In this document: in pieces, positions 29,975-42,191 of the stretch
Layout: each line of letters opens with the position of its first letter
Position numbering within the stretch: the first letter of the stretch is position 1
IMG/VR virus record: IMGVR_UViG_2703718809_000006
Direction: 5' to 3' (one strand)
Source of the DNA: a virus
Lineage: Duplodnaviria; Heunggongvirae; Uroviricota; Caudoviricetes
Length of the DNA stretch: 59,084 nt
The notes under the pieces: generated by a model
Databases searched by the model: none
The model's input: only the letters and a program-made list of their open reading frames with translations
What the model was told of the DNA's origin: nothing
Position numbers and translations under genes: made by a program

Positions 29975-31006
29975 ATGTCCAATTTACTGACCGTACACCA
30001 AAATTTGCCTGCATTACCGGTCGATGCAACGAGTGATGAGGTTCGCAAGAACCTGATGGACATGTTCAGGGATCGCCAGGCGTTTTCTGAGCATACCTGG
30101 AAAATGCTTCTGTCCGTTTGCCGGTCGTGGGCGGCATGGTGCAAGTTGAATAACCGGAAATGGTTTCCCGCAGAACCTGAAGATGTTCGCGATTATCTTC
30201 TATATCTTCAGGCGCGCGGTCTGGCAGTAAAAACTATCCAGCAACATTTGGGCCAGCTAAACATGCTTCATCGTCGGTCCGGGCTGCCACGACCAAGTGA
30301 CAGCAATGCTGTTTCACTGGTTATGCGGCGGATTCGAAAAGAAAACGTTGATGCCGGTGAACGTGCAAAACAGGCATTGGCGTTCGAACGCACTGATTTC
30401 GACCAGGTTCGTTCACTCATGGGAAATAGCGATCGCTGCCAGGATATACGGAATCTGGCATTTCTGGGGATTGCTTATAACACCCTGTTACGTATAGCCG
30501 AAATTGCCAGGATCAGGGTTAAAGATATCTCACGTACTGACGGTGGGAGAATGTTAATCCATATTGGCAGAACGAAAACGCTGGTTAGCACCGCAGGTGT
30601 AGAGAAGGCACTTAGCCTGGGGGTAACTAAACTGGTCGAGCGATGGATTTCCGTCTCTGGTGTGGCTGATGATCCGAATAACTACTTGTTTTGCCGGGTC
30701 AGAAAAAATGGTGTTGCCTCGCCATCATCCACCAGCCAGCTATCAACTCGCGCCCTGGAAGGGATTTTTGAAGCAACTCACCGATTGATTTACGGGGCTA
30801 AGGATGACTCTGGTCAGAGGTACCTGGCCTGGTCTGGACACAGTGCCCGTGTCGGAGCCGCGCGAGATATGGCCCGCGCCGGAGTTTCAATACCGGAGAT
30901 CATGCAAGCTGGTGGCTGGACCAACGTAAATATTGTCATGAACTATATCCGTAACCTGGATAGTGAAACAGGGGCAATGGTGCGCCTGCTGGAAGATGGC
31001 GATTAG
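29975..31006 (+). CDS. cre: Cre tyrosine recombinase
   Basis: 343 aa, MSNLLTVHQNLPALPVDATSDEVRKNLMDMFRDRQAFSEHTWKMLLSVCRSWAAWCKLNNRKWFPAEPEDVRDYLLYLQARGLAVKTIQQHLGQLNMLHRRSGLPRPSDSNAVSLVMRRIRKENVDAGERAKQALAFERTDFDQVRSLM..., matches Cre as I recall it. Confidence 0.97.
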   Translation: MSNLLTVHQNLPALPVDATSDEVRKNLMDMFRDRQAFSEHTWKMLLSVCRSWAAWCKLNNRKWFPAEPEDVRDYLLYLQARGLAVKTIQQHLGQLNMLHRRSGLPRPSDSNAVSLVMRRIRKENVDAGERAKQALAFERTDFDQVRSLMGNSDRCQDIRNLAFLGIAYNTLLRIAEIARIRVKDISRTDGGRMLIHIGRTKTLVSTAGVEKALSLGVTKLVERWISVSGVADDPNNYLFCRVRKNGVASPSSTSQLSTRALEGIFEATHRLIYGAKDDSGQRYLAWSGHSARVGAARDMARAGVSIPEIMQAGGWTNVNIVMNYIRNLDSETGAMVRLLEDGD

Positions 31007-32364: not shown

Positions 32365-33006
32365 ATGGATAAGAAAATATGCGTTGTTTCGATGAGCGTC
32401 GGCAAACCGGCGTCAATGACTGCCGCATGGATCAACAATGAGCTGATAATGGCTGAGCGGACCAGCTACCCTGAACGCCGCCGCGATATGGAACTCCAGC
32501 TGCTGCGCGAATTGCGAGAAAAAGAGGAAAAGGGTTTTATCGTGCTGGTGGAAGAGGAAAACAGCTTTATTACGGGTCGAGTTGGCCAGCGTGTAAGGTT
32601 GCGCGATCCCTTCATGAACGGCAGGCCGGTACTAATTGAAGCAATGCAGATTTACAAGGAGCTGGAACGCCAGAAAGCGATCAAGTTACCGCGCAAAGAA
32701 TCCGGCAAATACATCCTCCACCAAAGCATCTTCGATTCCGAACACGACAAAAAAGGCGATGAATTTTTCAACATCAACTGGAGCGAAATAACGACAGAGC
32801 ACGTTCTGTCGTTGTTATGCTGCTTCGCAACGGAATATAACAACGTTGCAAGCGCCGACTACATCAGGGCAATGGCTGGAGAAGTTGAGGCCCGCCAGGA
32901 ACCATCGTTACTAAGCCCTCTGATTAACATAATTCGCGGAACCCAATGTCTAGCCGACAAGCGAGTTCCTCAAGGCTTACTTACCGGCAAAGAAAACTAT
33001 TTATAA
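32365..33006 (+). CDS. mat: Mat-like protein (particle maturation)
   Basis: Position after ref as in P1; probable start at ATG 32365 (AAGGGG upstream); the track ORF opens at 32218. Confidence 0.5.
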   Translation: MDKKICVVSMSVGKPASMTAAWINNELIMAERTSYPERRRDMELQLLRELREKEEKGFIVLVEEENSFITGRVGQRVRLRDPFMNGRPVLIEAMQIYKELERQKAIKLPRKESGKYILHQSIFDSEHDKKGDEFFNINWSEITTEHVLSLLCCFATEYNNVASADYIRAMAGEVEARQEPSLLSPLINIIRGTQCLADKRVPQGLLTGKENYL

Positions 33007-33096
33007 TTAATTACGTCAGTAGCCAATAGAGATTTTTGTTGTGGAACAAAAATATATATTTTACAATCTAGTAACTTTGGGTGGAGGATTATTACA

Positions 33097-34137
33097 ATGA
33101 TGAATATTAAGCCGCTGAAAATTAGGAACAAGGTCATGAAGCCTCATAAAGCATCATTAAACCCTGACCTAACCGCAAGGAATGTACTTACATACAGTCA
33201 TTGGGATTTTGTCGAACTCTGGTTAAAGCGAAACGAAAAAGATGAGGCTCTTTTTTATTGGGAGCAAGCAAAAGTATTTAATCAGGCGGCCAATGGTTTA
33301 CCCAACCAATCAGCCCCACTTTTGCACTATTATTCATTCATGAATGCAGTAAAGGCGTTACTTTCATCTCGCAATATAAACTTCAAACAGCATCATGGTG
33401 TTGCTAGGGGTGAAAATGCAGCCCAAATTGATAACTTATCTGATATAAAAGTAAAAATAAAAAATGAGGGTATACTTCCGTCTTTTTCAAAATATATTGA
33501 CGGCACCTCTCATGAGGGGGTGTACAATATAAAAAACCTTTTTTCTGGATTGCCATATATTCATCGTACATATTGCCTTACTTATGATGTAACTGATGAT
33601 ATATTTATTCCACTGATCGATGCTGAGTTCGTTTTGAATGAGTCAGACAATAGCCTGTTTTTCACTGCGATTTTATCCAAGGATTTTCGGTTCGACACAG
33701 TTTTCGACATTCTACCGCCAGCGTTCGAATTGTTTGAAAGAGAAAAGTACAAAATAAAATCAGTAGAATCATTACTTGATTTTAATGAAAATCAATCGTC
33801 CAACATGCCGCAATTAACTGAATTTCATCAAAAAATAAGAAGAAATCTTTACTATATCAATGGCGCAGAGACTCTTTGGTATCTCAAACGTAAAAACAAT
33901 CAATCTGAGCATACTTCTGTTTCAATATCGCCATTGGTTATAACCCTAGCAGCTATGCATCGATTAAGTGAGCTATGTCGGTATGACCCACTTAAGCTAA
34001 GACAGTTACTAAATGAAAAAGAAAACTGGATTATTGCTGAATTTATTCAACAATCTCCGTCACAGTTTATAGATGCAATTTCATCTGAAATTACTGGACA
34101 CCAATTTCTTATCCCAAACGTAAGGTCTGCTTCTTAA
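33097..34137 (+). CDS. Unknown 346-aa protein, first gene of the AT-rich cassette (candidate defence component)
   Basis: AT-rich coding sequence unlike its flanks; GGTGGAGG 8 nt upstream of ATGATG; only an R-x6-H (RNINFKQH) motif noted. Confidence 0.6.
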   Translation: MMNIKPLKIRNKVMKPHKASLNPDLTARNVLTYSHWDFVELWLKRNEKDEALFYWEQAKVFNQAANGLPNQSAPLLHYYSFMNAVKALLSSRNINFKQHHGVARGENAAQIDNLSDIKVKIKNEGILPSFSKYIDGTSHEGVYNIKNLFSGLPYIHRTYCLTYDVTDDIFIPLIDAEFVLNESDNSLFFTAILSKDFRFDTVFDILPPAFELFEREKYKIKSVESLLDFNENQSSNMPQLTEFHQKIRRNLYYINGAETLWYLKRKNNQSEHTSVSISPLVITLAAMHRLSELCRYDPLKLRQLLNEKENWIIAEFIQQSPSQFIDAISSEITGHQFLIPNVRSAS

Positions 34138-34646
34138 TGAATATATATATCGCATGCGCTTTAACTCATGTTCCAAGGGAAATTTTCCATGAGTACAGTA
34201 ATTGGATTCACAGCCTTGCAAAAGGTTTATCTCAAAATAACAACGTAAAATATGCTTTGATAAATAGTGACCCAGAATTATCAAAGCGCCCTGAAAGTAA
34301 CAAATCTAGACTTTGTTACATTTGGGACAGAGATATGGTTGAGAAATCTGATGTAATAATTGCAGAATGTAGTTTTCCATCAACAGGGCTAGGAATAGAG
34401 TTGCAGATTGCTGAACAGAAGAACATTCCTGTAATCATCTGTTATAAAGATTATGGGATAAATAAAACTAAAACCATTGAATACGTGAATCCAGATGAGA
34501 CTACCCATAATCTACAAGTTGGCGAGGGTTTCATTTCTCATATGGTATTAGGACTACCAAACATCCTTGATGTCATATTATGTAAAGATATTGATAACAC
34601 ATGCAGGAAGCTAAAAATACTGTTAGATATGATTAACCATAATTAA
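34137..34646 (+). CDS. Nucleoside 2-deoxyribosyltransferase / DNPH1(Rcl)-like protein, second gene of the cassette
   Basis: TAATG coupling to the upstream ORF; '...DVIIAECSFPSTGLGIELQIAEQKNIPVIICY' matches the catalytic-Glu core of the NDT/DNPH1 fold. Confidence 0.6.
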   Translation: MNIYIACALTHVPREIFHEYSNWIHSLAKGLSQNNNVKYALINSDPELSKRPESNKSRLCYIWDRDMVEKSDVIIAECSFPSTGLGIELQIAEQKNIPVIICYKDYGINKTKTIEYVNPDETTHNLQVGEGFISHMVLGLPNILDVILCKDIDNTCRKLKILLDMINHN

Positions 34647-34667
34647 AAATTAACACCCACTTAAGAT

Positions 34668-34700
34668 GTCTAAACCAGCCCGGTATTAACCGGGCTAGAC
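34668..34700. other. Hairpin at the cassette/lxc junction (weak bidirectional terminator candidate)
   Basis: GTCTAaaccaGCCCGG-tattaa-CCGGGCTAGAC; no strong T-run. Confidence 0.4.
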
Positions 34701-34704
34701 AAAC

Positions 34705-34953
34705 TTAATCAGCATTCAGGAGCAATGCATTATCTATGATGATTTGCTCCCATTCTTCGAATGCCCGGTCGCGGACGCCCTGGGGAACGCTGTTAGTTTT
34801 GAAATCGACGACCGTACGCCATTTCCCGTCCGGGCGGTACATGCGCAGAGCTTTACTTCCCCCTTCCCTGCGCACCTCAACGTTATGCTTATCAGCAAAC
34901 TCTTGTAATGCTCGTAGCGTCCCATGCTTTACTGTGTAGTATCGCTTTTTCAA
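34705..34953 (-). CDS. lxc: Lxc/Bof-like C1 co-repressor
   Basis: 82 aa; position immediately downstream of ulx and darB on the same strand, as in P1. Confidence 0.6.
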   Translation of the reverse strand: MKKRYYTVKHGTLRALQEFADKHNVEVRREGGSKALRMYRPDGKWRTVVDFKTNSVPQGVRDRAFEEWEQIIIDNALLLNAD

Positions 34954-35390
34954 GTTTTCTCTCCAGCCTGTGCCAAGGCTTCAACTTCCAAATCGTAAGA
35001 CTCAAACTCATAGTCCTGGTCGTCAACTTCTTCAGGCACTGGCAGTAAATGCCAGGCTGAGTATATCTGACCATTATCAAAACGCTCCTGGCTGTAGAGC
35101 GTCGCGGCTATGAGTGTTAGCGCCGGGCGGTCATAACGGTAAATTTTGCGAACGTCACGGTCAACGAGACGACCGAAATTACCATAACCGCGCTCCAGTA
35201 ATAATTTTTTAATTTCCGGCCAGTATGGACCATAGCTGCGGTACAGGCGGGGATTTTTCAGTAATCGCCCGCGTAGCCCTGACAGGAAGAAATCAACGTA
35301 TTCGTCTTCTGTCTTTCCTAACAACGCTGTACGGAGTACCGCCTCAAGATATGTTTTATTCGGTTTTATTGTATCAGATAGTGTGGCCAT
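34950..35390 (-). CDS. ulx: Ulx-like protein
   Basis: 146-aa ORF between darB and lxc with overlapping termini. Confidence 0.55.
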   Translation of the reverse strand: MATLSDTIKPNKTYLEAVLRTALLGKTEDEYVDFFLSGLRGRLLKNPRLYRSYGPYWPEIKKLLLERGYGNFGRLVDRDVRKIYRYDRPALTLIAATLYSQERFDNGQIYSAWHLLPVPEEVDDQDYEFESYDLEVEALAQAGEKT

Positions 35391-35423: not shown

Positions 35424-38400
35424 TTATGCGTATTGTTGGATGACGGCCAGAACGTCCGCCACGTTGTGTTTTGTCTCGATAATCCACCAGTTACCCGGGA
35501 AATCGCTGTTCTTCGCCTTCGCTGGCAGCCAGCGAGCGCCGAATTTCGCCTTGATTGCGTCTTTCGCACGGAAAAGAACGCCTTTCATGCCTGAGGCTTC
35601 CTGAAGCCCAAATACCTCGCCAGCGGCGAATTTTGGTGCGTACATCATCTTCAGGTCGGCGGTGGATACGCGATAATTCAGACCAAGAGACTGAGCTATG
35701 CTGGTGGCATCACCCTGTATTGATGATAACTCTTCTTGTTTCTCGTTTCTGGCGGCAATCTCTTCCTCCGTGATGTTGCCAAGGGCTAGGTTTATCCGAT
35801 CAGCGTCGGCCTGTTTCTCTTCATCGGTGCGCCCGGCAAGAACCGTGTTAATTCTCTGCAATATCTCCACATGATTCTTGCGCATGCTGAGCAATTCCGG
35901 CGTAACCTCGTTAAGATCCACCAGCCCAAGGATGGCAAGGTCGGAAAACATTGATACCAGGTTGTAGGTCATGCGATAGCTGAGTTGACCATAGGCTGAT
36001 GGCAACTTCACCGCATCCATTTGATAGGCATCCATAAATTTAGAGCCGTCGTTTACGACATCCGCTATTGCAGGTGTGATTTTCCCTGTGGTGGCGGCCT
36101 CCCTGATTGCTGTTACCCACGATTGAGTCAGCGCGGCGACTGCATGATTCAGATTGGCTTCCCGTTCTGCTGCGATGCGCGCGCTTGCTGCGTCCATTGC
36201 CTGCTTGATCTCGGCTTTATTGCTGTAAATGCCAATGGTGCCAAACTGTGCTGTGGTGATCTCATAATCTGACGCCCGGAACTCATTGGTACCGAAAATG
36301 GCATTGGTGACTTCAAGTTCAGAATCCCCGTTACGAGTAGCCCCCTGGCTTGTTTTTTCCGGCATTCTGGCGATCGCATCCGCTATTTTCTCCTGAATTG
36401 CTTCAGGGGATAGCGTATCTCCGTATGACGCGATTACATCGCCATAATTGGAGCCAAACAGTTCAACCAGGAATGTTTCTGCCGAACGGATCTGGCGGTT
36501 ATTCCCTTCCGACATCATACCAAGCACCCATTTTGCAATTGACGACTTCAGCGCGCCGTCACGGCGATCCGGGTAAACCGCATGCTTCAGTGGGTCCGTA
36601 TAGGTACCAACAAAATCGATGCTATAGCCTGACTCTGTAGTCTGAACGCCGTATGAGTCAGTGATTTTGATCATGCCGCGCTGCTGGAAACGGTAGAAAT
36701 CGTCACAGGAAATGATGTCGTTAATCCCGGCGATGGAGACGCCACCACTGATTTTCTGCATAACAGCATCTTCATCGGGAGTTACATCAACCTGTTTATC
36801 CAGCGTCTTCACATCCCAGTTACCCGATTTGGTGCCTTTGAAGGTAAAGATGATCTCCACGTCTGCGCGCTGGCTGTCGAAGTCCAGCGACTTAATGCGA
36901 ACGATATCACCGGCACAATCATAGTATTGGCCTACACGCCATGAGCGATCGCCGATAACAAGGAACTCATTCGCATGGTTAACCAGATCAGGATCAACAT
37001 CCAGAATGCCTTTATTTATTGCATCCTCCACCAGCGGGCGCAGGCGTTTGATATCCGTCGCGGCCTTCTGAGTACGGTTCAATAATTTCTCATAGCGGGA
37101 GATGGCCTGAGAGATATTAGCCTTGCGCTGAATGGCGCTTTTCAACGACGCGCGATACTGTGCTAACAACGTACGGTCTGTGTGATGGACGCTACCCCAG
37201 CGGGCTTTCCAGTCTGCGTTATCAGCTGCTTTGGCCATTACCGCCTGTTTGAATTTGGCGACGTCGGCGGTGGTCTTTTCAAGTTCCGCTTTGCTTCGCT
37301 CTAATTCAGCGGTAAGCACCTCCACATCCTCACCAGCTGCGTGCTGCGCCTTGATGTAGTTCTGAAGGTCGATAGTAGCCTGTTCTTTCTGGCGAGCGCG
37401 TTGCGCGGCTTTCGCCTTATCCATTTGAACCTGCATCATTGCCAGACGTTCGCCATCATCCTTAGCGGTATACATCTGCATTTCGATCATATCGTTGGCG
37501 TCGGCGTTCTCCATTTCTGACTTATCTGAACGGAGGATATCGGAGATCCAGCCTGCTTTACGCTTCAGCGTCTTCAGTCGGTATTCATCGAAAGAACCCT
37601 TGCCGCAGTAGTAGTGAACGCGAACGCTTGCACGGTTGGAGCCAACTCGGGCACCGCGACCGTTTCGTTGCGCAATACTGGCTGGAGTCCATGGCAACGT
37701 CAGATGATGGATGTCAGTCGTTCCTCGATGCAGGTTGATACCCACCTCTGCCTTTTTGTTGCAGATGATGATCGGAGTCCGGCCCTCCTGGAAGTCGGCT
37801 GCAATCTTTTCCAGACCGCCCAACGACATTTCATTTTGCTGCGCGATATAGGCGTCATACAGAGCCATTTGCTCGTTGTATTTCGCTATCTGTGCATCTG
37901 TTGGTTCATCCGGTAACTCTTTCGGCGGTTTAACCGCTTTCAGTTTCTTACCGGTTTTACCTGCCTCGGCAACCGTCTGAGCATTCAGTATCCCCACCTT
38001 TGAAGGTTCAAGGTTAAGAGCATTGCAGATAATGCGCTTGAGCTTCTGGTGCTGCGTTTTTTCATCGGTGAAGATGATTTGCTTACCTTCCGGGAAAAAC
38101 TCCTTCAGCGTGGCAATCAGCTTCGCGTATTTGGGCGTAACGGGGTGAGTTACGGTCTGTTCGTCAATGCCAAACCTGGCCAGGCGCTTATTCACTTCCT
38201 GCTCGAACGCTTCCGGAACCTGCAACTGAATAAACTCGCCCTTATCTATCAGGGAGTATTGCGATTGCTGCGTGATTGAATCATCACTGTCGTCGTCTTC
38301 GCTGGTGGCTTGTTTAGGCAAACTGTCTGCCAGCTGCTGCACCGCATCGGCGTACTCCGGCAGGAAACGATAGGTGATCCGGCGATAGTACAGGTCCATG

Positions 38401-41400
38401 TCAGTACATACGCGGTCCATATCCCTGATTATTGAGAAGATCGGACGGGCTTTCTCGTGCTCAATCACGCCGTCTTCATTGACCGAGGTCGTTACACCAT
38501 TGTTGGCTTTGGCCGCCGCTTCCGCCTGCTGACGCAATTCTTCATACGCCGCCAGTTGTTCTTCAGTAAGTGGTGCATCCTGCTGGTGTTCGTCCAGTTC
38601 CGGGATCTCCACGGTATCCTTAACGTCTTCCGCTGTTTTAAGCGTTGTCCAGCGATGGAATATGCCGCGCAGCGCATCAAGGTTTTCAAAACCCACCAGC
38701 GCCATTTTTTCTTCAACTTCGCCGCTGATTTTCTGTACCGTTTCCAGCCTGGTCTTGCCGAAGAATTTTACGAAGTCATCAGGACTGTAGATCCCCATCT
38801 TCTGCCAGTATTCCTTCGGCAGAACATGAGAAAGCATGTTGTATGCATCGATCGGGGTGTTAACGACTGGTGTTGCAGTCAGGAGAACCGGTCCGCGCCC
38901 GCCATTCTTTTTCATCAAGTACGCGTTTTTGATTGCCATATCTCGCGCCGATTGCGCCACCGCGCTGGTGGGCAGATAGGCCAGCTGTGACGCTTCGCGA
39001 CCATTTTTATAGCTATTGCGGTAGTTGTGGCCTTCGTCAGCAATCACGCTGTCGAAGCCCATATCCTCAAAGTACGGATACTTCTCTGCTTTTTCGGTAC
39101 CGGTATCTGAATACTCCGACAATACCCGGCGACGCGCCGCCTCTTTGCGGTGGGAGTCGGAGTCCATTGCGCTGGCTACGCGCCCGGCGGCAACGAAGTC
39201 ATAAAGCATGTCTTGTGCATGCTCATCTACGGTGTCATCACGTAGCGGAATGCGGGCGTATTGTTCTTTGGTAAACACGACTGCACGGTAATTTGAGTGC
39301 GGGATCGCGTTCATCCGCGCCGTGATAGTGGCTTCATCTGCCAGCTTAAGAGCATCGCGCATAACTGGAGTGCCATCAGTACCAAGAACAGGTTTACCGT
39401 TCTCATTGAGCACCGGCACCTGGCGAATCTGATCGCCATCCATCAGCACATCAAGACCGACGAACAAGTAGTTACTGAATGCCTCTTCACTCAGGAATTC
39501 TTTTGCTTCGTAATACCAATTTTCCAGCACTGATTTAGGCACTACATACGCAGTACGGGTGGAGCGACCGTTCTCATAGTTGAACGCCTCAAGCGCCAGC
39601 GCGGTCGTGGTTTTACCCAGCCCGGTGCCGAAGCCCAGGATGCCGCGCCCATCTTCGGACAGTCGGCGCACCTCGCTATTCTGGTAATCAAATGGCTGGC
39701 GCTTACCGCTTAATCCCTTCAACCCAAGCGGATCGCCAGAGTGTTCATACGGGATATTGCTATTGAACACATCGTTGTATTTGGCAACCAGCTCATCGTA
39801 GCGATCGTGCGTCTTGATCCACTTATTGAACTGGTCCTCAAGCAGTGCCATCTGCTCGCGGTAGCCGTTCGCCGTCGCGCTATCTTTGCCACCGATACGC
39901 GCACCATTGAGATACTTTTCCAGCTGTGCCGGGAACCCGGTCGCGTTTTCACCTGATTTACGGTCCCACTCGTAGCGAATCTCACCTGTTTCTTTATCCT
40001 TGCGCTGGACGACACCGTATCGGTGCCCGACGAACAGACCATCACCACCGTGATAGGTGTCAGAAACCATTTCGTCGCCTTCCAGCTGCACTGACTGCAC
40101 ATAGCGCAGATCCGGATAGCCGTTTTCCTGCAAAAATTCCAGAATGACGGAACGGTCGAACCAACGGCTATTGAGCTTAAACCGGATATTCTCTGCTGGC
40201 GTCTTGATGCGCTTCTCTTCGATAGCTGCCAGCTGATTAAGGACGTTGTTCTTTACTGGACCGTCGGGGAGTGTGGCGAGGAATTCCTGTTTTGGAGCCA
40301 CTATCTCGTTAATGTCGCCGCTGGTGGCGCGGGCGAACGGAACAATCCCGCCATACGGTGAAACCGCAATACCAGGGGTGCTGGCCAATAAATTAAGCAA
40401 CTCTTCATCACTGGCTGGCAGTTCGCCGGTAAACGCAAGGCGGAAATCATCGAGCTGGATTGGATCGCGGGTGAGATCGCTATAGAGATAACGCAGGGTG
40501 TCCTGATAGCTGGTGGAGTCATAACTTGCGCTGGAATCATGCGTAACCAGCTTCCCTGTCAGCTCGTCAGAAATAGTGCCATCCAGCTTAATTGCACCAC
40601 GGAAAGCAAACCAGGCGCGCGCACCGCTCCCCGACAATTTCGCTATCGGACCGCGACCGGGGTTACCAAAACGGTCAATCTCTGCCTGCAAACGGGATAC
40701 CAGAGAAAGGCGCTGCTGTTCGATTTGTTCAGCACTATGCCCGGCGGCCTTCATGTCCTGATATTCAATTAACATCCGGCCAATCATCGCCCCGCGATAC
40801 AAGCGTTCACGGTATTTTTCAGGCTGGCTGTTAATCCAGTCCACCAGCTGCACCATATCGTCGCTGATTGATGTGGTGTACTTATCGCGGACATTTGCCA
40901 TCTGGGTAAATGTCATGCCGAGACGGCCTTCTGTTGTAGTCAGGTTACGCTGAAGAGCCTCCCAGCTATCCGCGCCATAACTGGCAGCATCGATCTTAAG
41001 TTCCTTCCCGGCATCAGCTTCAATCCAGCGACCACCAGCATATTTTTGCCATACGCCATTAATCAGGCGCATTTCCCCTTCACCAACAACGTCTGCGGTC
41101 GGTGACGGTTCAGCCATATCGAGCAAAGACCAGTCGATACGGCTTTCGAAACGATGAATCAGCTTCGCTTTAAGAGCCTGGTTATCAATCTGACCGTCGG
41201 CACGAACCTCAATACGCCCCTGGAAGCCCTTTTCCTGGGTGCCATGAACAAACCGGCGGCCGTCCTTTTCAAACCACTTGCCAGAAATAAACGTTGGCCA
41301 AAGCACATTTGCCGATTCGAGAGTGCTTTCATCCACCAGGGGGATTTTCTCAGCCATCTCTGCCGGATGTTTGCGCATCAGCACCACATCAACAACTGTA

Positions 41401-42191
41401 CTGGTCCCGTTTGCGTCAAAAGTACCGGTAGGCAAGCGGTGGGCACCAAGAAATTCAGCTTTCCGTGATAGGCGCAGGCGTAACCGCTTCATGTTTGAAC
41501 CTGAAACAATGGACGGCGGCACAATCACGCACATGAATCCGCCTGGCTTTATCTTGTCCAGCATGCGGAGCATGAAGTAAGAACCCATGTCCGTTTCTTC
41601 TGCGTAAGGCTTATCGATGTTGCGTGTGTTATCACGACCACCGAACGGAACGTTACCCACAACATGGTCGAATGAATCGTTAGGCGTGCTTACAGCCAGT
41701 TGTTCGAACGGAGAAATCTGTACGCTGTCTTCCGGGTGCAACAGCTGGTTTATACGACCGGAAACACTGCTGATCTCAGTCGCGGTCATCACCGTACCAA
41801 CCGGTTTTGTCTCATTAAAAACGCCGGTTCCCGCCGATGGTTCCAGAGTGTTACCTACGTCCGCGCCGTAGAGCTTCATGATCTCCCAGACACCTTCAGC
41901 GATCGGCTTTGGTGTGTAATATTCGGAGACGGACCCGCCAATGCCGCCTTCGCCGGTGTACCCAGCCAGGATCTGGCGCTGTTCATCTGTCAGTGTCGCG
42001 CCGTCCACCAGCGAATTAAGCAAATCTATCGCCTTCTGATTCGCCTCCCGGCGTAGTCGGTCATAGCTTTTGCCTTCCACCTTTTCCACGCCGTATCTAA
42101 TCGGCGCTCGGTGAGATGTTATTGCACTAATGTATTTCAATATTTCGCTGACACTTGAACAGCGAAACACCCCCATAGATAGCTTGTTCAT
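35424..42191 (-). CDS. darB: DarB antirestriction protein (N6-adenine methyltransferase fused to a DExH helicase)
   Basis: 2255 aa; 'VGNVPFGG' MTase motif IV-like; helicase Walker A 'GFGTGLGKTT' and 'VIADEGHNYRN'. Confidence 0.9.
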   Translation of the reverse strand: MNKLSMGVFRCSSVSEILKYISAITSHRAPIRYGVEKVEGKSYDRLRREANQKAIDLLNSLVDGATLTDEQRQILAGYTGEGGIGGSVSEYYTPKPIAEGVWEIMKLYGADVGNTLEPSAGTGVFNETKPVGTVMTATEISSVSGRINQLLHPEDSVQISPFEQLAVSTPNDSFDHVVGNVPFGGRDNTRNIDKPYAEETDMGSYFMLRMLDKIKPGGFMCVIVPPSIVSGSNMKRLRLRLSRKAEFLGAHRLPTGTFDANGTSTVVDVVLMRKHPAEMAEKIPLVDESTLESANVLWPTFISGKWFEKDGRRFVHGTQEKGFQGRIEVRADGQIDNQALKAKLIHRFESRIDWSLLDMAEPSPTADVVGEGEMRLINGVWQKYAGGRWIEADAGKELKIDAASYGADSWEALQRNLTTTEGRLGMTFTQMANVRDKYTTSISDDMVQLVDWINSQPEKYRERLYRGAMIGRMLIEYQDMKAAGHSAEQIEQQRLSLVSRLQAEIDRFGNPGRGPIAKLSGSGARAWFAFRGAIKLDGTISDELTGKLVTHDSSASYDSTSYQDTLRYLYSDLTRDPIQLDDFRLAFTGELPASDEELLNLLASTPGIAVSPYGGIVPFARATSGDINEIVAPKQEFLATLPDGPVKNNVLNQLAAIEEKRIKTPAENIRFKLNSRWFDRSVILEFLQENGYPDLRYVQSVQLEGDEMVSDTYHGGDGLFVGHRYGVVQRKDKETGEIRYEWDRKSGENATGFPAQLEKYLNGARIGGKDSATANGYREQMALLEDQFNKWIKTHDRYDELVAKYNDVFNSNIPYEHSGDPLGLKGLSGKRQPFDYQNSEVRRLSEDGRGILGFGTGLGKTTTALALEAFNYENGRSTRTAYVVPKSVLENWYYEAKEFLSEEAFSNYLFVGLDVLMDGDQIRQVPVLNENGKPVLGTDGTPVMRDALKLADEATITARMNAIPHSNYRAVVFTKEQYARIPLRDDTVDEHAQDMLYDFVAAGRVASAMDSDSHRKEAARRRVLSEYSDTGTEKAEKYPYFEDMGFDSVIADEGHNYRNSYKNGREASQLAYLPTSAVAQSARDMAIKNAYLMKKNGGRGPVLLTATPVVNTPIDAYNMLSHVLPKEYWQKMGIYSPDDFVKFFGKTRLETVQKISGEVEEKMALVGFENLDALRGIFHRWTTLKTAEDVKDTVEIPELDEHQQDAPLTEEQLAAYEELRQQAEAAAKANNGVTTSVNEDGVIEHEKARPIFSIIRDMDRVCTDMDLYYRRITYRFLPEYADAVQQLADSLPKQATSEDDDSDDSITQQSQYSLIDKGEFIQLQVPEAFEQEVNKRLARFGIDEQTVTHPVTPKYAKLIATLKEFFPEGKQIIFTDEKTQHQKLKRIICNALNLEPSKVGILNAQTVAEAGKTGKKLKAVKPPKELPDEPTDAQIAKYNEQMALYDAYIAQQNEMSLGGLEKIAADFQEGRTPIIICNKKAEVGINLHRGTTDIHHLTLPWTPASIAQRNGRGARVGSNRASVRVHYYCGKGSFDEYRLKTLKRKAGWISDILRSDKSEMENADANDMIEMQMYTAKDDGERLAMMQVQMDKAKAAQRARQKEQATIDLQNYIKAQHAAGEDVEVLTAELERSKAELEKTTADVAKFKQAVMAKAADNADWKARWGSVHHTDRTLLAQYRASLKSAIQRKANISQAISRYEKLLNRTQKAATDIKRLRPLVEDAINKGILDVDPDLVNHANEFLVIGDRSWRVGQYYDCAGDIVRIKSLDFDSQRADVEIIFTFKGTKSGNWDVKTLDKQVDVTPDEDAVMQKISGGVSIAGINDIISCDDFYRFQQRGMIKITDSYGVQTTESGYSIDFVGTYTDPLKHAVYPDRRDGALKSSIAKWVLGMMSEGNNRQIRSAETFLVELFGSNYGDVIASYGDTLSPEAIQEKIADAIARMPEKTSQGATRNGDSELEVTNAIFGTNEFRASDYEITTAQFGTIGIYSNKAEIKQAMDAASARIAAEREANLNHAVAALTQSWVTAIREAATTGKITPAIADVVNDGSKFMDAYQMDAVKLPSAYGQLSYRMTYNLVSMFSDLAILGLVDLNEVTPELLSMRKNHVEILQRINTVLAGRTDEEKQADADRINLALGNITEEEIAARNEKQEELSSIQGDATSIAQSLGLNYRVSTADLKMMYAPKFAAGEVFGLQEASGMKGVLFRAKDAIKAKFGARWLPAKAKNSDFPGNWWIIETKHNVADVLAVIQQYA

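Follow-up and report, generated by a model that had tools for sequence, protein, structure and literature searches.

Which genes have taken the place of the EcoP1I restriction-modification (R-M) system in a P1-like phage-plasmid, and what could they do for their host? The question arises from the IMG/VR virus record IMGVR_UViG_2703718809_000006, a stretch of 59,084 nucleotides which was analysed at its full length and is called the window below. Between the genes mat and lxc it carries a small cassette of two open reading frames, ORF A and ORF B. ORF A encodes a YaaC-family protein with a split HEPN domain, and ORF B encodes a predicted N-glycosidase with the fold of the nucleoside 2-deoxyribosyltransferases (NDTs). 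The best explanation is that the cassette replaces the EcoP1I genes as a two-gene abortive-infection operon, the products of which would work as an obligate pair. We think it probable that the two proteins are a pair for defence or some form of conflict; we infer the defence function from the genomic context.

The window is a P1-like phage-plasmid with the gene order cre (29975-31006), c8, ref, mat, ORF A, ORF B, lxc, ulx and darB. A preceding sequence-only reading, made without database searches, had described two plus-strand genes coupled by a TAATG overlap of stop and start codon, placed in the res-mod slot of P1. Both genes are found where it put them (Table 1), they are the only two ORFs between mat and lxc, and the two peptide motifs it quoted are present in the translations. 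RefSeq annotates the same two coding sequences and names ORF A 'YaaC family protein'. The P1 reference NC_005856 runs from mat (2716-3468) through res (3544-6456) and mod with IS5 to lxc (9750-9998), and the homology between the window and P1 restarts exactly at the lxc stop codon at 34705. The cassette therefore occupies the EcoP1I res-mod slot, as had been claimed. Its GC fraction is 0.34-0.36 (33000-34600) against 0.46-0.55 on either flank, in agreement with the AT-rich composition described earlier against a backbone of about 50% GC. This composition supports a foreign, presumably horizontally acquired origin.

ORF A could not be placed in any family by the sequence-only reading. It is a clear member of the Pfam family YaaC (PF14175), with a score of 157.7 bits (cut-off 27, E-value 5.9e-46) and residues 34-332 aligned to positions 18-307 of the 307 in the model. 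By structure match the fold is HEPN-like, and the matches in the Protein Data Bank (PDB) include 7ae2, 5yep and 8xdj; a PDB sequence search with ORF A, singly and as a family profile, returned no match. Conservation was counted in 99 full-length family representatives sharing less than 50% mutual identity. H100, R295 and Y296 are conserved in 98% of these and G101 in 99%. H288, S291 and E292, which lie on one face of helix-3, are conserved at 87-98%, and H156, R157, R248, E315 and E331 at 87-99%. The HEPN helices are interrupted by an alpha/beta insert, which begins with H100-G101, H100 (codon 33394-33396) being its first conserved residue.

Canonical HEPN domains carry an Rx4-6H motif at the end of helix-3 (PMC3710099). 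In ORF A the position of the canonical arginine is held by R295 (codon 33979-33981), and the following residues are Y-D-P-L-K-L, with no histidine. The conservation pattern would fit a HEPN variant in which the basic residue has been kept and an alternative conserved histidine comes from the insert that separates helix-2 from helix-3. A HEPN-like nature had been guessed before from the peptide RNINFKQH. The fold and the conserved H100 of this peptide bear the guess out, and its arginine does not: position 92 is lysine in 57 and arginine in only 18 of the 99 representatives, mostly lysine across the family, so the proposed R-x6-H is not the HEPN motif. The insert of about 180 amino acids is a candidate ligand- or trigger-sensing domain.

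ORF B has the Rossmann-like three-layer fold common to NDT, DNPH1 and MilB, and its closest structures are the nucleotide N-glycosidases MilB and BcmB, DNPH1, and NDTs. Against the Pfam family PF05014 it scores 22.1 bits (E-value 1.8e-4), which is below the gathering cut-off of 28.8, and against PF15891 12.8 bits; some of its homologues carry a precomputed PF05014 match. A family profile of ORF B found DNPH1/Rcl in the PDB with an E-value of 7e-5. Alignment of the ORF B family with DNPH1 by hhalign gave a probability of 94.6%, with D64, S82 and E88 aligned to D80, S98 and E104. D80 and E104 are the catalytic residues of DNPH1, in keeping with the names of PDB entries of the mutants D80A and D80N. 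The candidate catalytic residues of ORF B are D64 (34326-34328) and E88 (34398-34400), with S82 as phosphate-binding serine. Among 36 ORF B homologues D64, E88 and Y4 are invariant, and S82 and the LTHVPR loop are conserved in at least 90%. The DNPH1 match, taken with the alignment and conservation of D64, S82 and E88, makes ORF B look like a working N-glycosidase on a 5'-phosphorylated nucleotide. An NDT/DNPH1 fold had been proposed from the letters and is confirmed by fold matches, profile search and hhalign; the glutamate proposed as catalytic was also placed correctly, as E88 aligns with E104.

Relatives of ORF B were sought in one genome per GTDB species, which gave 52 loci from Proteobacteria, Bacteroidota, Planctomycetota, Cyanobacteria, Spirochaetota, Nitrospirota, Acidobacteriota and other phyla. 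A YaaC homologue stands directly upstream on the same strand in 48 of the 52. The two genes are spaced -1 to 22 nt apart in 50 of 51 loci, 13 of which have a 1-nt overlap, and GC drops within the pair, relative to its flanks, in 48 of 51, with a mean difference of 7.5 points. Mean column identity across phyla is unusually high, 54% and 58% for the two proteins. ORF B lay downstream in every element that a YaaC-seeded search of viral contigs found, of which four are P1-like and three are not. One exception among the 52 (L050) is a truncated copy at a contig end.

Three of the 52 loci (L009:5009-6540, L022:4946-6531 and L052:5046-6492) have an upstream gene other than YaaC, again with a stop/start overlap to the ORF B homologue. 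In this alternative partner of about 320-350 amino acids, a domain resembling dCTP deaminases (PF22769, about 1e-26) is followed by a hydrophobic C-terminal tail, which probably spans the membrane. It shares no domain with YaaC by hhalign (probability 0.1%), and it matches none of the PADLOC dCTP-deaminase models. Interrupted pairs, both counted among the 48, were seen in two metagenome-assembled genomes. In one (L047:507-1855) an IS3-family insertion sequence (IS) separates YaaC from an N-terminally truncated ORF B, and in the other (L004:746-1665) YaaC is frameshifted and ORF B intact. Anecdotally, they hint that a cell can tolerate either gene on its own.

The cassette of the window is present in 85 PLSDB plasmids at 95-100% identity, and at 99% or more in 71 of them. 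These are 85 of the 699 PLSDB plasmids bearing lxc and ulx, or about 12% of P1-like plasmids. Among 5,426 complete E. coli genomes 109 carry it (about 2%), and the exact protein sequences of ORF A and ORF B occur in at least 1,000 contigs each. A near-identity search of the INPHARED phage records did not find it.

Gabija A and B, type I R-M, a Pycsar cyclase and dGTPase are among the genes nearest or second-nearest to the 52 loci. Further close neighbours are CBASS E1-E2, MADS, AriA-like ATPases, PDC-M19, PDC-M45, PDC-S31, transposases and conjugation genes; AbiD adjoins the pair in L052, and AbiEi and AbiEii flank it in the viral contig L062. In enterobacteria the pair is found at three unrelated cargo sites: the P1 mat-lxc slot, a P2-like prophage and a chromosomal island. 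The contents of the mat-lxc slot itself vary, with EcoP1I in P1 and nothing in phage RCS47. Comparing this locus across P1-like genomes, a check which the sequence-only reading had proposed, shows the slot to be an exchangeable site for defence cargo, comparable to the P2/P4 hotspots. The term defence hotspot used in that reading was well chosen: in every one of its contexts, this slot included, the pair sits at a defence or cargo hotspot.

Individual loci gave the following picture. In the phage vB_EcoM-673R5 (L055:1601-2700), and also in SJ46, the slot holds a RelA/SpoT-family protein and a partner, which match both halves of the PADLOC candidate system PDC-S33. Phage JL22 (L056:1550-2500) has a 316-aa protein there with a partial match to PDC-S34. 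The empty slot of RCS47 (L065:1507-1547) has 39 bp between the stop codons of mat and lxc. The P2-like prophage is that of Yersinia enterocolitica (L067:6518-11879), where a 60%-identical pair lies between the tail genes S and V, accompanied by a 263-aa unannotated protein and an 8xMP membrane protein, and followed after gpV by a Gp49/HTH_37 (HigB/HigA-like) pair. This site looks like a second P2-like cargo locus, other than the published hotspot beside cos. The chromosomal island, on an E. coli contig (L066:3510-16488), holds a pair with 59% and 72% identity; a BrxR-type WYL regulator and a phage integrase lie to one side of the pair, and the other side is occupied by a Dpd-like cluster (PTPS/QueD, DpdD, a PLD nuclease and a large DEAD helicase).

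The YaaC family comprises 1,223 clusters at 50% identity. A Rosetta-stone search of 150 family representatives found no fusion of YaaC with an ORF B domain, and long YaaC members were rejected as fusions, the extra length being a mis-called N-terminus or a low-complexity insert. A distant YaaC clade (seed P0383; L070-L079, for example L078:1545-9010, on metagenome contigs) has no ORF B. Its module is made up, in this order, of Band_7_1 (SPFH), a likely membrane protein of about 233 amino acids and YaaC, with overlapping stop and start codons. Between one and three large TPR-TIR_2 proteins (with DUF6273 or WD40) directly adjoin this YaaC in four of the six contexts examined; in the fifth the surroundings are a type I R-M locus into which the copy is embedded, and all neighbours in the sixth are unannotated. 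Together with the pairing with ORF B, these TPR-TIR_2 neighbours indicate that YaaC-type HEPN proteins repeatedly accompany enzymes of the TIR/DrHyd class. The module may be a separate multi-gene candidate defence system. Its small unannotated partners were considered as cryptic TIR or NDT proteins and rejected, since they gave weak matches to membrane-protein families only. In one contig a eukaryotic-type RNA-dependent RNA polymerase family protein (PF05183; L076:1-624) lies a few kb from the distant YaaC module, beside a resolvase and TnpV.

How the pair could act is suggested by its resemblance to Thoeris. On infection, ORF B would cleave the N-glycosidic bond of a 5'-phosphorylated nucleotide, which may be NAD+ or a (deoxy)nucleoside monophosphate ((d)NMP). 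A product derived from this nucleotide, or the change in the nucleotide pool, would be read by the insert domain of ORF A. This would switch on a non-canonical HEPN site made up of R295, H288 and S291 from helix-3 and H100 from the insert. The activated ORF A would then cut RNA, and the cell would arrest before the invading phage finishes its cycle. By analogy we regard this Thoeris-like signalling model as quite possible, somewhat short of an even chance. The direction of signalling is suggested because the constant ORF B swaps its upstream partner, which is YaaC or, in 3 of the 52 loci, the dCTP-deaminase-fold membrane protein, and because the distant YaaC loci resemble Thoeris in having one effector gene and several TIR genes. 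Joining a nucleotide-binding domain to a membrane segment is typical of signal-activated effectors. Small nucleotides are well known to gate HEPN RNases, as in Csm6 and RNase L, and the order of thsA and thsB is effector first and TIR-like enzyme second, as in the cassette.

A TIR-less form of such a pathway is conceivable, in which a DNPH1/MilB-type enzyme makes a new signal, the insert domain reads it and a non-canonical HEPN RNase fires; we hold this to be possible and on the unlikely side. Within it the substrate might be phage-specific, for example a modified pyrimidine dNMP. The same enzyme could drive the dCTP-deaminase-fold membrane effector, and the distant YaaC proteins could be driven by TIR enzymes. 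If such a pathway exists, it would be a modular signalling family that reaches across phyla and travels with P1-like and P2-like phages.

Several results weigh against abortive infection by the pair, or against signalling from ORF B to ORF A. PADLOC (including its ThsA and ThsB models), NCBIfam and PHROGs gave nothing meaningful for ORF A or ORF B; the earlier remark that no named system was recognised here agrees with the PADLOC run, in which neither protein matches any model. In the sources searched no experimental phenotype of the pair was found. The canonical Rx4-6H is absent at the end of helix-3 of ORF A, and because of this absence the HEPN domain could be non-catalytic. High conservation of both proteins is unusual for phage sensors, as ThsB-type proteins diversify fast. 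Finally, the TPR/WD40 TIR neighbours of the distant YaaC could be self-contained sensor-effectors which merely share an island with it.

Some of the same results are what one would expect if the roles were reversed, an arrangement that we consider rather unlikely. ORF B would then be the effector and, when triggered, would break N-glycosidic bonds and so use up an essential nucleotide pool (NAD+, dNMPs, 5-hydroxymethyl-dCMP (5hm-dCMP) or 5hm-dUMP). Sensing or regulation would fall to the YaaC-HEPN protein, which would restrain or activate ORF B and might itself be non-catalytic. The missing Rx4-6H of ORF A and the unusual conservation of both proteins suit this arrangement, as do the full DNPH1-type core of ORF B (D64, E88 and the phosphate-binding S82) and its closest structures, which are plain hydrolases (MilB, BcmB and DNPH1) and NDTs. 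NDT-like and TIR-like N-glycosidase domains are validated effectors in anti-phage abortive infection, in the retron Ec86 (Eco1) and in the DUF4062 protein 'Swarozyc', where they deplete adenine nucleotides or NAD+. Furthermore, a dCTP-deaminase-like partner and a dNMP glycosidase could carry out a two-step destruction of deoxypyrimidines. Yet about 14 near-invariant polar residues lie on the HEPN helices and the insert of ORF A, which is enzyme-like and not what a scaffold would need. The membrane tail of the dCTP-deaminase partner would be superfluous in a soluble metabolic role, and the distant YaaC proteins keep the conserved site in the company of TIR proteins that have TPR sensors of their own.

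A toxin-antitoxin (TA) module, in which one protein (the HEPN RNase or the N-glycosidase) is the toxin and the other neutralises it by binding or enzymatically, would stabilise the phage-plasmid by addiction and replace the post-segregational killing of EcoP1I; R-M systems are known to act as addiction modules (PMC10879196). A tight coupling of two small genes, found on plasmids and prophages, agrees with such a role, and HEPN toxins with a nucleotide-handling neutraliser are known (HEPN-MNT; PDB 7ae2, 5yep and 8xdj). An inverted repeat covers the candidate -35 hexamer, an arrangement known from TA operons that regulate themselves, and the single-gene disruptions in L004 (ORF A frameshift) and L047 (IS between A and B) can be read in the same way, anecdotally. 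Nevertheless we judge a TA role improbable. Both proteins are large, strongly conserved and enzyme-like, and neither resembles a labile antitoxin; conservation of the palindrome does not extend to other cassettes; and many copies of the pair sit in chromosomal defence islands, where addiction gives no benefit. The role also overlaps with the one we prefer, as TA and abortive infection are not mutually exclusive. HEPN-MNT, in which a minimal nucleotidyltransferase (MNT) AMPylates the HEPN toxin, was rejected as the identity of the cassette, the partner having the NDT/DNPH1 fold and not that of a nucleotidyltransferase.

That the pair serves the phage, by degrading immune nucleotide signals as a counter-defence or by remodelling the nucleotide pool for P1 replication, is highly improbable: it adjoins the anti-restriction genes ulx and darB, and ADP-ribose-type signals are among the molecules that DrHyd/TIR/SLOG-class enzymes can process (PMC9503650), but most copies are chromosomal and beside defence genes instead of in phage genomes (hence the lower standing of this role and of TA), DrHyd domains are rare in viruses (PMC9503650), the slot otherwise holds defence-type cargo, and the near-identity search did not find the cassette in the INPHARED records.

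The abortive-infection operon that we prefer was compared with known systems. Like Thoeris it has two genes, the effector first and then a small enzyme of the TIR/DrHyd class encoded on its own, and the distant YaaC loci, with one YaaC and several TIR_2 genes, have a comparable layout. TIR and DrHyd are sister folds found in NAD+-consuming effectors or signal generators (PMC9503650, PMC7159879). In the DefensePredictor domain tables (PMC13092281, supplement file 4) some of the UniRef50 clusters with the DefenseFinder label 'Thoeris~ThsB_Global' bear the annotation PF15891 (Nuc_deoxyri_tr2), which means that the ThsB-type proteins already include NDT-like folds. In contrast to Thoeris, ORF B is nearer to MilB, NDT and DNPH1 than to TIR, and the putative effector ORF A is a HEPN protein with a novel insert, whereas ThsA is SIR2-SLOG or Macro-TM. 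As Thoeris consists of a TIR ThsB and a SIR2-SLOG or Macro ThsA, the cassette is not a member, and the resemblance is one of architecture only.

A retron with an NDT-like effector was rejected, as the slot holds two ORFs only and gave no PADLOC retron match and no Rfam match (searched over 32800-34900). The cassette differs from Ec86 in having no reverse transcriptase and no msr/msd RNA, and from both Ec86 and Swarozyc in that ORF B has a HEPN protein as partner and is nothing more than a domain of 169 aa, lacking an auxiliary lobe. No retron effector structure appeared in the ORF B profile search or among the top fold matches listed.

DNPH1/Rcl and MilB/BcmB, the latter N-glycosidases of CMP and hydroxymethyl-CMP, are the best sequence and structure matches of ORF B. 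Identity is only about 15-20%, however, and ORF B is set apart by its conserved LTHVPR loop, which follows strand 1, and by an additional beta-hairpin region (amino acids ~104-134). Those enzymes serve metabolism or biosynthesis and have no HEPN operon partners. ORF A can be set beside the AF0298-like HEPN-T/UPF0332 proteins and AbiV, which have an alternative active site. It differs from them in the YaaC insert of ~180 aa, against a short loop, and in the extra conserved H288, S291 and E292 of helix-3. With EcoP1I the cassette shares the mat-lxc slot and presumably the protection of the lysogen from other phages, but the proteins are unrelated, the cassette measures 1.7 kb against about 6.2 kb, and it lies on the opposite strand. 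EcoP1I or its remnants (P1: 3544-9700) were rejected as the content of the slot, which has neither a Mod methyltransferase nor a Res helicase-nuclease.

The literature searched contained no paper describing the pair of YaaC and ORF B. The HEPN survey (PMC3710099) does not name YaaC, and the P2/P4 hotspot paper has no such pair. Pfam's description gives no function for YaaC, nor does the literature searched. In the DefensePredictor supplement (PMC13092281) the label 'Predicted novel defense gene' is given, with a log-odds of 11.0, to WP_059338150.1, a 'YaaC family protein' of 346 aa from E. coli. It may belong to the ORF A cluster, which it matches in length and species, and in the accessible part of that source there is no sign of it among the 42 validated systems. 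The pair is therefore rated as a predicted, uncharacterised nucleotide-centred two-gene abortive-infection system, and not as categorically new. If it is a defence system, it would provide the first functional handle on the YaaC family, and a HEPN protein with a DrHyd-fold N-glycosidase would be a new pairing in nucleotide-centred bacterial immunity. It would also affect transduction and the outcome of phage therapy in clinical Enterobacteriaceae. The pair could reveal a new immune signal or a new route of nucleotide destruction, and such destruction could include a selective attack on the modified nucleotides needed by T-even-like phages.

Table 1. Features of the cassette and its borders, in positions of the window
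Feature	Position	Strand	Remarks
mat, left edge of cargo slot	32365-33006	+	from the annotation of an identical plasmid and P1
Leader, mat stop to ORF A	33007-33096	+	AT-rich; inverted repeat, weak candidate promoter, Shine-Dalgarno
Candidate promoter	TTGTGG 33039-33044; TACAAT 33062-33067	+	17-nt spacer; by eye, weak
Shine-Dalgarno GGAGG	33083-33087	+	upstream of ORF A
ORF A	33097-34137	+	346 aa; YaaC-family protein with split HEPN domain
ORF A, HEPN helices 1-2 (aa 49-91)	33241-33369	+	secondary structure of model; N83 and K86 99% conserved
ORF A, alpha/beta insert between HEPN helix-2 and helix-3 (aa 92-278)	33370-33930	+	H100-G101, H156-R157, R248
ORF A, HEPN helices 3-4 (aa 279-333)	33931-34095	+	from model; helix-3 with H288, S291, E292, R295, Y296
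TAATG stop/start overlap	34133-34139	+	couples ORF A to ORF B
ORF B	34137-34646	+	169 aa; predicted N-glycosidase of NDT/DNPH1/MilB fold (DrHyd superfamily)
GC-rich hairpin	34667-34701		between convergent ORF B and lxc; -21.2 kcal/mol
lxc and ulx, right edge of cargo slot	34705-35390	-	lxc itself 34705-34953
darB, beyond ulx	35424-42191		context

The signals around the two genes were examined separately. The core palindrome TTTTTGTT-gtgg-AACAAAAA at 33033-33052 is part of a 16-nt inverted repeat at 33025-33060 (88% complementary, fold z-score -3.8), which overlaps the candidate -35 hexamer. A consensus scan of 32900-34800 called no sigma-70 promoter and no intrinsic terminator. The palindrome is not conserved upstream of the divergent cassettes in the other mobile elements (L066 and L067). 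The hairpin downstream of ORF B has a z-score of -5.8, and none of 200 shuffled sequences was equally stable. It is likely a terminator, and the terminator scan was negative for it because it has no T-run. Both divergent cassettes have a hairpin of their own. The palindrome and the hairpin of the sequence-only reading are real at the places given; its proposal of an own promoter, and likewise an operator role of the palindrome, found no support in the scans or in the other copies.

In RCS47 the 39-bp spacer of the empty slot carries a GCCCGG..CCGGGC hairpin resembling that of the window, so the hairpin may belong to the backbone instead of the cassette. The final few codons of mat differ among P1, RCS47 and the window.

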